From NCBI GenBank assembly GCA_014729505.1, contig WJJS01000001.1, positions 12,938 to 76,937 of the forward strand: 64,000 bases of DNA, read 5' to 3'. Below are positions 17,518 to 46,040 of this stretch, in pieces (positions within the stretch are counted from its first letter, which is position 1; each line of letters opens with the position of its first letter). The notes under the pieces were generated by a model, which saw only the letters and a list, made by a program, of their open reading frames with translations, was not told the origin of the DNA and ran no database searches. The stretch is from Candidatus Woesearchaeota archaeon. GTDB lineage: Archaea > Nanobdellota > Nanobdellia > Woesearchaeales > ARS49. Both the position numbers and the translations under genes were made by a program.

Positions 17518-17605
17518 AGTCTCTTTTTTATTGCAGGAAAAAGTTCAAAGTTATAAACTTTTCAGCGACAATTTTTTAAAGAATCCGATGAAAAAGCATC
17601 CGTAC

Positions 17606-17640
17606 GGGCCGGTAGCTCAACCTGGTAGAGTGCTCCGTTG
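17606..17640 (+). repeat. Duplicated 5' fragment (35 nt) of tRNA-Ala(GGC)
   Basis: Identical to 17730-17764; preceded by ttttttaaag TATA-like box at about -30. Confidence 0.8.
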
Positions 17641-17696
17641 CGATGCTTTCGCCCATCGACAGCGAGGTCCGATCTCACTTGCGTGAGATCCGACAG
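17641..17696 (+). other. Conserved structured element, copy 1 (CGATG..CATCG hairpin + GGTCCGATCTCAC-TTGC-GTGAGATCCGAC hairpin)
   Basis: Shares motif with 20047-20108 and 22430-22462, with compensatory base changes in the hairpin stem. Confidence 0.5.
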
Positions 17697-17729
17697 TTTT
17701 ATGAATAGGTGTTTTTAGTATACGTTTAT

Positions 17730-17803
17730 GGGCCGGTAGCTCAACCTGGTAGAGTGCTCCGTTGGCTTCGGAGAGGCTGCGGGTTCAAATCCCGCTCGGT
17801 CCA
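17730..17803 (+). tRNA. tRNA-Ala (GGC)
   Basis: Manual cloverleaf: acceptor GGGCCGG/TCGGTCC with G3:U70, anticodon loop TTGGCTT, T-arm GCGGGTTCAAATCCCGC, discriminator A. Confidence 0.85.
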
Positions 17804-17858
17804 TGGGTGGCCTTGACGCCCTTTTTTTGATCAAACTTTTTGTAAAAGTTTGCGGTTA

Positions 17859-17879
17859 GAGGCTGCGGGTTCAAATCCC
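17859..17879 (+). repeat. Duplicated 3' fragment of tRNA-Ala (variable/T-arm)
   Basis: gaggctgcgggttcaaatccc identical to tRNA-Ala 17773-17793. Confidence 0.7.
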
Positions 17880-19936: not shown

Positions 19937-20002
19937 AAGGCAGGAAAACCCCTGCTCATTTTTACTTTCTTTTTTCTCAAGAGTACAAAAACCTTTAAAA
20001 AA

Positions 20003-20012
20003 GACTTGTCTT
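20003..20012 (+). promoter_or_regulatory. TATA-like box (tttaaaaaag) about 25 nt upstream of the partial tRNA-Met copy
   Basis: Seen in sequence; archaeal promoter spacing. Confidence 0.35.
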
Positions 20013-20031: not shown

Positions 20032-20046
20032 TGGTGGCGGAGTGGC
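20032..20046 (+). repeat. Duplicated 5' fragment of the tRNA-Met locus (4 nt flank + tRNA nt 1-11)
   Basis: tggtggcggagtggc identical to 20132-20146. Confidence 0.8.
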
Positions 20047-20108
20047 ATATTCCGATGTTTTCCGCCATCGACACGGAGGTCCGATCTCGCTTGCGCGAGA
20101 TCCGACGG
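20047..20108 (+). other. Conserved structured element, copy 2
   Basis: atattCCGATGTTTTCCGCCATCGACACGGAGGTCCGATCTCGCTTGCGCGAGATCCGACGG; matches 17641-17696 with covarying stem positions. Confidence 0.5.
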
Positions 20109-20135
20109 TAGTCAAGTAACACGAGTATCATTGGT

Positions 20136-20253
20136 GGCGGAGTGGCTTAGCCTGGTTAGAGCACCGCGCTCATAGGTCATACCTTTGAGCACTGAGCTTT
20201 CGAGCTATGACGAAGAAACGCGGGGGTCACGAGTTCAAATCTCGTCTCCGCCA
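20136..20253 (+). tRNA. tRNA-Met (CAT) with ~43-nt intron at the canonical 37/38 position
   Basis: Acceptor GGCGGAG/CTCCGCC, anticodon stem CCGCG..CGCGG, loop CTCATAG, T-arm ACGAGTTCAAATCTCGT, discriminator A; intron gtcatacctttgagcactgagctttcgagctatgacgaagaaa. Confidence 0.75.
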
Positions 20254-20396
20254 CTTTTTTATGGTGGGTGAGTGTAAGCGAACCCTCCTTTTTTTTCACA
20301 TTTTTCTCAAAAATTTGGTTTATTTTTTTGTCTTTGCCACTTTTTTTGTGCTGTTGAGCGTTAGCGAGGCGCACTTGTCATTTCACAGTACCATGC

Positions 20397-22355: not shown

Positions 22356-22413
22356 AAGAAAACCACGTTCAAATCCGTAAACTTCTTAACTGGGGCATTT
22401 TATGTGCATATAT

Positions 22414-22462
22414 GCCGACGTCGCATACTCTGCGTATCGATGTTTTCCGCCATCGACACGGA
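22414..22462 (+). other. Duplicated 5' 14 nt of tRNA-Ser followed by conserved element core (CGATGTTTTCCGCCATCGACACGGA), copy 3
   Basis: gccgacgtcgcata then ctctgcgtatCGATGTTTTCCGCCATCGACACGGA; identical core to 20054-20078. Confidence 0.5.
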
Positions 22463-22539
22463 CGCGCGGCATTCGCTATTGCTCAGCCCCGCAAGACACA
22501 AATCTTAAAAGGCAGTTCCTTTGTTACTCACTTATTCTT

Positions 22540-22718
22540 GCCGACGTCGCATAATCTGGTACGCTAAAAAACGCATTAGCGTTTTTGGCGCGCCGAAAAG
22601 CTTTGCTTTTCTCGCGTTGCGCCGGTCTTGAAAACCGGTTCCCTTGGGTGCTCGAAAATCTGCGATTTTCGGCACGTACAAAAGCTGACGCTTTTGTCCG
22701 TATCCCGTTTCAAATCCG
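22540..22718 (+). pseudogene. Pseudo-tRNA-Ser: nt 1-22, ~56-nt insertion, anticodon arm + variable arm start, ~51-nt insertion, degenerate T-arm lacking 3' acceptor
   Basis: Segments 22540-22561, 22618-22649, 22701-22718 match the intact tRNA-Ser at 22756; no complementary 3' acceptor strand. Confidence 0.45.
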
Positions 22719-22755
22719 TAAACTTCTTAACTAGTGGCATTTCATGCGCATATAT

Positions 22756-22837
22756 GCCGACGTCGCATAATCTGGTATTGCGCCGGTCTTGAAAACCGGT
22801 TCCCTTGGGTATCCCGGTTCAAATCCGGGCGTCGGCG
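22756..22837 (+). tRNA. tRNA-Ser (TGA), type II with long variable arm
   Basis: Acceptor GCCGACG/CGTCGGC, 3-bp D stem, anticodon stem CCGGT/ACCGG loop CTTGAAA, variable arm TTCCCTTGGGTAT, T-arm CCCGGTTCAAATCCGGG, discriminator G. Confidence 0.85.
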
Positions 22838-22891
22838 TTTCTATGACGCGAAAGCGTCATCCCATTTTTGAAGTAGTGATTTGAACCGGGG
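22833..22891 (+). repeat. 59-nt direct repeat copy 1 (last 5 nt of tRNA-Ser + 54 nt trailer); second copy at 23751-23809
   Basis: Exact match cggcgtttctatgacgcgaaagcgtcatcccatttttgaagtagtgatttgaaccgggg. Confidence 0.8.
22841..22868 (+). terminator. Perfect hairpin ATGACGC-gaaa-GCGTCAT followed by cccattttt T-run, 3' of tRNA-Ser
   Basis: Seen directly. Confidence 0.4.
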
Positions 22892-23068
22892 CCAGTCAAG
22901 CTTTGCTTGACGTTGTCCTGGTTTCAAATCCGGGCGTCGGCGTTGTGGGCGCGTTAGCGCTCTTTTTTGTTGTTGTGATTTGAACCGGGGCCAGTCAAGC
23001 TTTGCTTGACGTTGTCCTGGTTTCAAATCCGGGTGTCGGCGTTGTGGGCGCGTTAGCGCTCTTTTTTT
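22876..23068 (+). repeat. Tandem direct repeat, 2 x ~99 nt, each containing inverted repeat GATTTGAACCGG...CCTGGTTTCAAATC and a tRNA-Ser 3'-end-like segment (cctggtttcaaatccgggcgtcggcg)
   Basis: Units 22876-22974 and 22975-23068 nearly identical (one g/t difference). Confidence 0.8.
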
Positions 23069-23135: not shown

Positions 23136-23336
23136 ATGCCAACAACTATCCAACTCAGCAAAGAAACCAAGAAGCTAATAAGCACGTTTGGTTCCAAAGA
23201 AGATACTTACGACACGATAATTAGAAGACTGTACAAATTAGCTGTTAAGGAGCAACTGAAAGAATTCTTGCTCTCATCAGAAGGAACAATGCCGATAGAT
23301 GAGGCGATTAAGAAAGCCAAGAAAAAATGGCAATAG
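23136..23336 (+). CDS. Putative ribbon-helix-helix (CopG-like) antitoxin
   Basis: N-terminal TIQLSKETKKLI beta-strand-then-helix pattern of RHH proteins; 66 aa; overlaps downstream gene by 10 nt. Confidence 0.35.
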   Translation: MPTTIQLSKETKKLISTFGSKEDTYDTIIRRLYKLAVKEQLKEFLLSSEGTMPIDEAIKKAKKKWQ

Positions 23337-23668
23337 TAGAGATTACGAAAACACTCTATGAACAGATAGATCGAAAATTCAAAGGAAAAAGTGTCAAAGT
23401 ATTACAACATTTGAAATCATTAGAAGAATCGCCAAAGAAAGGAAAACTCCTAGGAACCATAGGAGGAATAGTGATTAAAGAAGTAAAGTATGAAGGTTTC
23501 AGATTTTATTTCATCACCGACGGATTCAAACTCAAATATACCTCCTCTGAAGATCTTACCGACTTACTTTTGCGGGTTGTAAGAATGTCAGATAAGAAAC
23601 ATCAGCAACAGACTATCGACGAGATCAAACAGATTCTACTAACCATCGGTGTTGAAGGTTTGACTTGA
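23327..23668 (+). CDS. Putative RelE/ParE-family toxin
   Basis: KKGKLLGTIGG-IVIKEVKYEGFRFYFITDG and LLLRVVRMSDKK resemble the RelE/ParE G..L.G.L.G....R.G.YRiiY..d...i.il.i.hR pattern; 113 aa. Confidence 0.35.
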   Translation: MAIVEITKTLYEQIDRKFKGKSVKVLQHLKSLEESPKKGKLLGTIGGIVIKEVKYEGFRFYFITDGFKLKYTSSEDLTDLLLRVVRMSDKKHQQQTIDEIKQILLTIGVEGLT

Positions 23669-38088: not shown

Positions 38089-38091
38089 ATT

Positions 38092-38134
38092 TTTTTTCCT
38101 TTTTCGTATATGTGAATGCAATTAACAGGACGAG
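38092..38134. repeat. Duplicated copy of the ferredoxin gene 3' end (direct repeat of 38219-38261)
   Basis: ttttttcctttttcgtatatgtgaatgcaattaacaggac present twice. Confidence 0.6.
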
Positions 38135-38209
38135 CATTCTGCCGCTGTTTTTGCCCAGCGGTTGCAATGCGTGACGCTCGGCTTTGCCTCGATCACGCAG
38201 TTAGAATTT

Positions 38210-38467
38210 CTAGATTCTTTTTTTTCCTTTTTCGTATATGTGAATGCAATTAACAGGACAACACTCTGCGGCGTCCATATTATCTTTGAGATCATCGAGT
38301 TCGAGATGTTCTTCAAGACCGACCTTTTTGGCTCCCTTCAAATCAACTTTGCCATCATCACTTATCGTCCAAAATTCTTCAGCAATAGCAGTACAACTAC
38401 CACAACCAATACATTCAGAACGCTCATGAACAATCCTGAACTTTTTATCTTTGTTTTTCTCAGGCAT
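38210..38467 (-). CDS. Small 4Fe-4S ferredoxin-like protein
   Basis: CIGCGSCTAIAEEF and AAECCPVNCIHIY cysteine clusters. Confidence 0.7.
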   Translation of the reverse strand: MPEKNKDKKFRIVHERSECIGCGSCTAIAEEFWTISDDGKVDLKGAKKVGLEEHLELDDLKDNMDAAECCPVNCIHIYEKGKKRI

Positions 38468-45794: not shown

Positions 45795-46024
45795 GGGATA
45801 GTAGAAAGAGAAAAACAATAAATAAGTTTTGAATTCATTTTAGCGCAGTAGTACCTATGAGATCTACTTCCATATACAATTCTTCCTGTCTACCGATTAC
45901 AGAAATCGTCTTTTTCTCTATACTACTCATTTTGCTACAGTACTGCCAATGCAGGACTACTTTCGAAAGCCCAAGGTATGTTCAACGGGATTGCAGTACT
46001 AACGTTATTATCGTTGAATAAGAA

Positions 46025-46040
46025 TCCCCGCCCCCGGACT
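46025..46040. repeat. Duplicated 16-nt fragment of the tRNA-Tyr 3' end/T-arm
   Basis: tccccgcccccggact identical to 46146-46161; adjacent palindromes ctgcagaaaacacttcgtgtttttgcag and gaaccaggaacctggttc. Confidence 0.7.

Follow-up and report, generated by a model that had tools for sequence, protein, structure and literature searches.

A structured, intron-like mini-element beside duplicated tRNA gene segments in a Woesearchaeota genome, with relatives that lie inside archaeal tRNA genes

In the Thermoproteales, similar bulge-helix-bulge (BHB) introns have been found at different positions of tRNA genes (Fujishima et al. 2010, cited via PMC4090602), and the passages on intron spread in that 2014 review (PMC4090602) place the spread supposedly at the DNA level, by an unknown mechanism. 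For Caldiarchaeum subterraneum it has been proposed that integration events, intron gain and the disruption of tRNA genes are connected (Sugahara et al. 2012, PMC3293823), and the split tRNAs of Nanoarchaeum equitans and Caldivirga maquilingensis and the recently split ones of the Desulfurococcales are encoded as pieces with extra sequence that are processed by the BHB splicing endonuclease (PMC3218864). The locus described here has likenesses to each of these systems. Within a 64-kb stretch of Candidatus Woesearchaeota DNA (contig WJJS01000001.1, positions 12,938 to 76,937; the whole stretch is called the window below), a small structured element occurs in three copies, every one of them preceded by a repeat of the 5′ portion of a tRNA gene lying 85-340 nt downstream (Ala-GGC, Met-CAU and Ser-UGA). 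We tentatively read it as an intron-like mini-element whose mobility rests on DNA-level insertion at tRNA loops, with a probability of roughly 0.45.

The core of the element (CGATGYTTTCSSCCATCGACA) was matched three times in the 64 kb, always on the + strand, against 0.00 matches expected from 100 shuffles. Its form is CGATG(C/T)TTTC(GC/CG)CCATCGACA, at 17641-17661, 20053-20073 and 22438-22458 (+). A second hairpin, GGTCCGATCTC(A/G)CTTGCG(T/C)GAGATCCGAC, follows at 17666-17694 and 20078-20106 (written as GGTCCGATCTCRCTTGCGYGAGATCCGAC, it starts at 17666 and 20078). A first-pass annotation of this DNA, made from the letters alone, had described three copies of a motif fused to duplicated 5′ fragments of the downstream tRNA, and that description was borne out at the Ala, Met and Ser loci alike.

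At the Ala locus, an orphan copy of tRNA-Ala running from -3 to position 35 (17603-17640, +) forms the left direct repeat, 37 of its 38 nt being identical to 17727-17764, and breaks in the anticodon loop. It is followed by the core (17641-17666, +; delimited by pattern, covariation and covariance model), in which helix S2 (TTCGC/GCGAG) would be pseudoknotted with helix S1 (CGATG/CATCG), by hairpin 2 (17667-17694, +; a 12-bp stem with one C-C mismatch and a TTGC loop) and by a tail (17695-17726, +) whose A/T-rich box TTTTATGAATA, ~30 nt before the intact gene, may serve as a promoter. The intact tRNA-Ala(GGC) occupies 17730-17803 (+; Rfam tRNA 57.5 bits, also called by ARAGORN), and its first 35 nt make up the right direct repeat. 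A putative TATA-like A/T-rich box, TTTTTTAAAG (17571-17580, +), can be read ~26-35 nt 5′ of the orphan fragment.

At the Met locus, the orphan copy TGGTGGCGGAGTGGC (20032-20046, +) comprises 4 nt of leader and tRNA positions 1-11 and equals 20132-20146, in agreement with the earlier remark that this copy takes in 4 nt of upstream flank. Its core (20053-20078, +; same three lines of evidence) carries S1 and the S2 form TTCCG/CGGAG, hairpin 2 (20079-20106, +) has G-C in place of the A-T of the Ala copy, and the tail (20107-20131, +) runs into AUUGGUG (20129-20135), which resembles the GUUGG(U) block that intact introns carry in their tails (discussed below); no T-run precedes the intact gene. 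That gene, tRNA-Met(CAU) at 20136-20253 (+; Rfam tRNA 55 bits), has a 45-nt canonical intron unrelated to the element. The box CCTTTAAAAAAG (19993-20004, +), now 5′ of the orphan fragment, appears from local alignment to be the ancestral tRNA-Met promoter box, conserved with a relative (L111, below). TATA-like boxes had been placed 25-30 nt upstream of both the Ala and the Met copies; this is wrong for Met, where the distance from the tRNA-like start is ~33-44 nt.

At the Ser locus, the orphan piece covers tRNA positions 1 to ~22 (22414-22436, +; compared with 22756-22778, its first 14 nt are identical and the whole is 83% identical), and ~47 nt of the gene's upstream region (22368-22413) is duplicated before it. 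The core (22438-22463, +) has the same sequence as the Met core. The first-pass annotation took this copy to retain the first hairpin only, which proved incorrect: hairpin 2 is present at 22464-22492 (+) as GCGCGGCATTCGCTATTGCTCAGCCCCGC (..CATTCGC TATT GCTCAG..), in the family-consensus form, and at 61.3 bits the Ser copy has the top covariance-model score in the window. Compared with its counterparts at Ala and Met, this hairpin (TTTCGC..GCTCAAG type) is in fact nearer to the family consensus. The intact tRNA-Ser(UGA) at 22756-22837 (+; Rfam tRNA 58.5 bits) is intron-less.

The direct repeats end in a tRNA loop on one side and no more than 4 nt from the gene end on the other. They are separated by 86 nt (Ala) and 85 nt (Met), equal to full intron lengths, and nothing except the 85-86-nt unit lies between them at these two loci. 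None of the three copies is itself inside a tRNA gene; each stands 5′ of a complete one. A probable fourth, distant member, judged from a model match and the changes in its helices, was recognised at 38143-38200 (+; covariance model 11.5 bits, E 0.019). This best sub-threshold match falls in the window's only other repeat-flanked insert, also of 86 nt (38132-38217), which has perfect 42-nt direct repeats on both sides and sits at a site without a tRNA; S1 and S2 both show compensatory changes. The site (38090-38259) is located between a ribulose-phosphate epimerase gene and a small opposite-strand open reading frame (ORF).

Outside the window, a scan for the exact pattern across GTDB, with one genome per species, returned 101 matches, most of them chance matches in bacteria, among which seven copies in six loci were judged true. 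A scan of JGI metagenomes yielded new members in L102, L103 and L109 and re-found two known ones (L104, the same as L087, and L108, the same as L022). Most of the 101 GTDB matches and four of the nine metagenome matches have neither S2 complementarity nor hairpin 2; true members possess a hairpin of the type GUGGGUUUCGC..GCUCAAGCCCAC and show covariation between core positions 11-12 and the dinucleotide that follows ACA. The records of L008, L022 and L087 are titled 'uncultured Methanosarcinales archaeon' (label not verified), those of L036 and L093 Woesearchaeota, and that of L045 'archaeon DeMMO2_30'. The motif has further copies in these six loci and in the three new contigs, and they are tRNA-linked except for L022/L108 (below). 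The family unit measures ~76-87 nt and consists of the 26-nt core CGAUGNUUUCNNCCAUCGACANNGAR, the hairpin and a variable 20-30-nt tail.

In other archaeal metagenome-assembled genomes (MAGs) and metagenome contigs, the module is a tRNA intron that is predicted to be spliced. In L103 and L109, ARAGORN resolves it as an intron of 76 nt in the anticodon loop of tRNA-Ser(CGA); by inspection of L103, CUCGAA in that loop pairs with UUUUGAG at the end of the intron. In L087/L104 it is the third of three inserts, in the T loop; with the inserts removed, a tRNA-Arg(CCU) is called, and inspection shows the T stem of L087 adjoined by a 4-bp helix (UUCA/UGAA) with flanking 3-nt bulges. For the window copies no BHB is evident, the duplicated exon before the would-be 3′ site not being complementary to the 5′ junction. 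Because the module is a tRNA intron in other archaea, all three explanations offered by the first-pass annotation (att-junction scars of a tRNA-targeting integrative element, a regulatory or processing leader, and a new small RNA) had to be reframed.

Two side observations concern these intron-bearing genes. The GUUGG(U) block is common to the tails of intact introns (L087:2145-2235 (-), L102:937-960, L103:2835-2866 (-) and L093:7790-7811 (-)); pairing of this block, wobbles included, to the invariant core CCAUCGAC was considered and rejected, duplex energies being no better than those of shuffled tails except in L087. The tRNA genes at L045:4400-4647 and L087:2160-2400 (-) have two or three introns at non-canonical positions and are missed or only partly resolved by default ARAGORN and at the Rfam gathering threshold.

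The remaining members show several arrangements. L008 and L045 repeat the order of the window, namely orphan 5′ piece, core, hairpin, tail and an intact, multi-intron tRNA. The order in L093 is the mirror image (intact tRNA, tail, hairpin, core on the opposite strand, and an orphan 3′ piece starting from the T loop), and in L036 this mirror order occurs twice in tandem. L102 has the element followed by the 3′ part of a tRNA, and L022/L108 is a free-standing copy with no tRNA nearby. The antisense reading of L036 is secure, because its orphan piece GCGAAGT is the complement of the 3′ acceptor strand and is not the 5′ strand, GCGGAGT. The polarity is the same in eight of eight orphan-piece cases: the core is adjacent to the orphan piece, the tail to the working gene. 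Copy number as well as position differ between genomes.

A 5′ tRNA segment with its own promoter and a structured extension resembles a 5′ half gene, and at some loci the reverse-complement motif stands before a 3′ tRNA piece. The orphan pieces might on these grounds be split-tRNA halves, each pairing with a 3′ partner encoded elsewhere in the manner of Nanoarchaeum equitans, and separately encoded tRNA pieces with extra sequence are indeed a feature shared with split tRNAs. However, a complete gene for the same tRNA is directly downstream in every case, a single extension is common to Ala, Met and Ser, whereas those of known split tRNAs are pair-specific, the Met and Ser fragments hold only 11-22 nt of tRNA, and neither a partner half nor a reverse-complement copy of the motif was found in the window (model search of both strands). 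This explanation is close to refuted and hardly credible any longer.

Mobility of the family offers a better account of the differing arrangements. As positions, tRNAs and orientations vary between members, the family appears to move between tRNA genes, and since antisense copies and duplicated flanks occur, insertion at the DNA level is to be preferred to reverse splicing alone. In some genomes the unit is found at a loop within a tRNA gene, from whose precursor it would be removed as a BHB-type intron. Three units would have landed in tRNA genes of the window, in the anticodon loop of Ala and in the D region of Met and Ser, and each event would have left a second copy of the gene's 5′ segment, with the resulting order of ancestral promoter, orphan 5′ piece, element and complete tRNA gene. 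The tRNA would stay functional, splicing of the element would not be needed, and the element itself may serve the host in no way. Orphan piece and element would probably still be transcribed from the old tRNA promoter; at Met they would form a ~110-nt 5′ leader that RNase P could cut off, and at Ala the transcript may end at weak T-runs, with the tail perhaps supplying a new promoter. A very small donor recombining in an integrase-like manner, recombination over short homology, nicks staggered over a wide distance or an RNA intermediate could have given rise to the duplication.

The closest described counterpart, the transposed introns of the Thermoproteales, is alike in that intron spread between genes is implied. 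The present family differs in its hosts (DPANN/Woesearchaeota and other MAGs), in its near-invariant structured core and covarying hairpin, and in having copies outside tRNA reading frames, with orphan pieces, both orientations and flanking tRNA duplication, products not reported in the sources consulted.

Comparison with a syntenic contig of a distant relative (L111) provides an empty site. Along this contig lie, in order, HAD, an unannotated short ORF of the opposite strand, HIT, an ORF and DHODH, with S10 and EF-1alpha further on. The L111 tRNA-Met(CAU) has a homologous canonical intron, and its promoter and leader lie directly before the gene, with no orphan piece and no element; the covered syntenic part, which includes the Met and Ser loci, holds no copy of the element. 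The L111 leader aligns with the window sequence 5′ of the orphan Met piece (local alignment score 38, reached by 0 of 2000 shuffles), and the L111 promoter and leader gave no alignment to the tail before the intact tRNA-Met of the window. Since the alignment is found upstream of the orphan piece only, the ancestral promoter would now drive the fragment and the element, and as no T-run precedes tRNA-Met, the precursor probably carries both as a long leader. The earlier proposal of transcription as a leader is consequently plausible for Met, given this promoter and the missing T-run. A second relative, L112, is not syntenic and has no copy. The tails were also considered as diverged copies of the promoter and leader, in which case the insert would be 56 nt only; local alignments were no better than those of shuffles at Ala, Met and Ser, and the idea was rejected.

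The same comparison bears on the foremost rival, in which the tRNA genes once contained the element as an intron and an intron-less copy of the gene, or just of its 5′ segment, then recombined alongside, leaving the old 5′ exon and intron to decay, with no mobility beyond ordinary intron gain and loss. The junction between orphan piece and core does resemble an exon/intron junction, the insert has the length of a full intron, an ancestral promoter precedes the orphan piece, and the Ser locus contains serially displaced gene copies of differing intron content. On the other hand, the L111 tRNA-Met has no such intron at that position, three independent precise replacements would be needed within 5 kb, and a possible fourth copy lies away from tRNA genes. 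In L093 and L036, moreover, the element is antisense to the tRNA and stands beside an orphan 3′ piece, an orientation in which it could never have been spliced from that tRNA as an intron. We regard such relics of gene replacement as unlikely, yet as the first of the rivals, followed in order by a functional RNA, att scars and split-tRNA halves.

Covariation was measured on 11 aligned family members (alignment A2). In hairpin 2, eight of ten pairs are changed on both sides and 90% of cells are paired; the covariation score was reached by 0 of 500 shuffles, and sliding the partners destroyed the signal. The long hairpin drifts in sequence and keeps its pairing, so selection on a paired structure, which had been suggested from the window copies, is upheld. 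Helix S1 (CGAUG/CAUCG) is invariant across members, which is uninformative because the search pattern fixed it. Helix S2 (UUCNN with NNGAR) changes twice from GC to CG with compensation, and U-A alternates with U-G. As S2 overlaps S1, the two would together form a pseudoknot, hypothetically a compact H-type one with stems of 5 and 5-6 bp and loops of 1, 1 and 3 nt. At one hairpin position U-G is the commonest pair; this and the other wobbles favour an RNA of the + strand over a DNA cruciform or an antisense RNA. Collectively, the covariation supports a predicted sense-strand RNA fold composed of the long hairpin and of a helix that would make the core a small pseudoknot. Within the window, Ala and Met differ by compensated pairs in hairpin 2 and by GC/GC versus CG/CG at core positions 11-12/22-23. 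The compensatory pair in the second hairpin that the first-pass annotation had seen is real and two more such pairs were found, so that six of the eight differences between the 56-nt copies lie in three compensated pairs.

Such a fold could also belong to a functional host RNA, either a leader acting in processing or regulation or a small, perhaps circular, RNA that tRNA precursors release; the tRNA fragment would lend it a strong tRNA promoter or signals for processing. The small RNA or regulatory leader of the first-pass annotation finds no support here; what would fit a functional RNA in general is the 26-nt core, near-invariant across genomes of 31-56% GC, the compensatory changes between copies of one genome, the wobble pairs favouring a sense RNA, the place of the element behind a tRNA promoter and the stand-alone copy L022/L108 without a nearby tRNA. 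Against this, the element matches no Rfam family, has no C/D or H/ACA boxes and has no target or partner sequence that could be found in the window; L111 does without it at the covered Met and Ser loci; copy number and position vary by genome in the manner of a selfish element, and compensatory change would be expected in active mobile-element lineages too. A host RNA is therefore rather improbable in our estimation.

Rfam was searched with gathering and with permissive cut-offs for the window, for the 7.5-kb region and for six related loci, and returned tRNAs only, the best overlap with the element being Chlorobi-1 on the opposite strand (14.4 bits, E 5.8). A C/D, H/ACA or K-turn core was rejected by inspection, the boxes (RUGAUGA/CUGA pair) and tandem G-A pairs being absent. 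Coding on the opposite strand (ATG GAC GAA ACC ATC; a 69-aa ORF in L102) was rejected as well, since variants are not concentrated at third positions; core variants change second codon positions (GAC/GGC/GCG, ACC/AGC/AAC) and the third is invariant. A miniature inverted-repeat transposable element or a transposon derived from an insertion sequence was likewise dismissed: the insert ends (CGATGC.../...ATACGTT) are not inverted repeats, and the flanking repeats are 15, 38 and 42 nt long. Neither the motif nor intron-sized repeat-flanked units were found described in the literature searched.

Integrases of the SSV and pNOB8 types generate tRNA direct repeats that break in the anticodon or T loop, the incoming copy restoring the gene. 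The window repeats could in this light be attachment (att) site scars of larger integrative elements, viral or plasmid, whose attP carried a tRNA part beside the motif and whose body was lost. Breaks of such repeats in the anticodon, T and D loops are what integrase crossover sites typically show. The element is seen in both orientations, every tRNA gene of the window has other partial tRNA copies on its 3′ side, and a 918-nt segment with two small ORFs is bounded by 59-nt repeats beside tRNA-Ser. A precedent exists in Caldiarchaeum, where a 5′ tRNA-Thr fragment lies 1.8 kb upstream with a recombinase gene between (PMC3293823).

The likeness to Caldiarchaeum extends to an orphan 5′ fragment that lies, as a direct repeat, upstream of an intact gene for the same tRNA (PMC3293823). 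There, however, the repeats bracket 1.8 kb and a recombinase gene, whereas those of the window bracket an 85-86-nt unit without any protein gene; and there the new intron is in the reconstituted gene, whereas in the present case the working gene is free of the intron-like unit, which has remained beside the orphan fragment. Random deletion is an unlikely source of the Ala and Met inserts, because the same complete unit is left each time and only this unit lies between the repeats. No integrase was found in the window, the motif has no match in 2.9 million viral contigs (two pattern scans), blastn against phage and plasmid records gave nothing meaningful, and elsewhere the motif is a predicted working intron within tRNA genes, in all of which the locus departs from the duplications left by integrases with their cargo. 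The att-scar proposal survives only in modified form, as the repeats enclose the intron-sized unit alone, and we hold it to be a poor prospect.

Mobility of an intron-like unit remains the preferred reading, and several points weigh against it. Neither an insertion enzyme nor a donor molecule was found. The direct repeats, 15-42 nt and variable in length, fit no known transposase, and a circle of ~100-130 bp would be very small for site-specific recombination. About ten members are in hand, with only two distinct intron-type examples, and since an exact-match pattern was used to find every one of them, the core's invariance is in part artefactual. The nearest relative, by the DHODH protein of the window, is distant (56% identity), which limits what can be said on the timing and order of events. 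The history of the Ser locus goes beyond a single insertion, its promoter region being duplicated and a second, defective copy being present, and the compensatory changes between Ala and Met could mean an RNA function in the host.

Taken one step further, the family could represent a new kind of selfish DNA in DPANN archaea: a structure-defined unit of ~86 nt without a protein, mobilised in trans by a recombinase or nuclease and inserting at stem-loop DNA, mainly tRNA loops, in either orientation. An insertion without duplication would survive only where the splicing endonuclease excises it, and would so become a tRNA intron; an insertion with duplication of a tRNA segment would give the orphan-piece arrangement. 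We consider this extension possible but doubtful.

The window is Woesearchaeota (DPANN) chromosomal DNA with a GC content of 43%. Its housekeeping genes include those for GluRS, aEF-1alpha, EF-2, the thermosome and RNA polymerase subunits; every Pfam match among the larger ORFs is to a housekeeping protein, several have no match at all, and no integrase, transposase or reverse transcriptase was seen among them. Four tRNA genes are present, with canonical introns in those for Met and Tyr.

Short partial tRNA copies occur near all four of these genes. Those of the 3′ parts of tRNA-Ala, -Met and -Tyr are located at 17858-17879, 20330-20367 and 46017-46040, 86-121 nt past the genes; the spacers before them are hairpin-rich and do not contain the motif, and L111 has a similar 3′ piece past its tRNA-Met. 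The Ser locus is more complex. A second, defective tRNA-Ser copy with two intron-like inserts, cut in the T loop, was recognised from sequence and repeats at 22540-22720 (+), one insert being at the same D-region position as the element in the first copy. The stretch 22368-22755 has three gene starts, and the junction TTCAAATCCG|TAAACTTC occurs twice (22368 and 22709), making the locus look as if promoter-to-T-loop units had been added repeatedly. On the 3′ side of tRNA-Ser lies a tandem 99-nt repeat (22865-23062, 96% identical), each unit of which combines a T-arm piece in antisense with a hairpin and with the 3′ end of tRNA-Ser in sense. A perfect 59-nt direct repeat (22833-22891/23751-23809; 918 nt apart) starts in the final bases of tRNA-Ser, and the two small overlapping ORFs between its copies (23148-23336 and 23327-23668; a weak DUF7557 match) look like a toxin-antitoxin-style cassette.

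For annotation, the loci call for caution in tRNA counts, as standard tools miss orphan pieces and multi-intron genes. They also present a candidate structured RNA, with a possible compact pseudoknot and a hairpin, for which there is no described family. How introns are gained by and moved between archaeal tRNA genes has been an open question since the Thermoproteales finds, as framed in the passages on intron spread of the 2014 review (PMC4090602), and the family offers material for testing it: a trackable core, intron copies, and what seem to be by-products or intermediates of the insertion process. Should the element be no more than a relic, the loci would still record rapid remodelling of tRNA genes in reduced DPANN genomes. 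The arrangement in the window may show how archaeal tRNA introns move, and if the selfish-DNA interpretation is true, it would give a direct view of the origin and spread of archaeal BHB introns.

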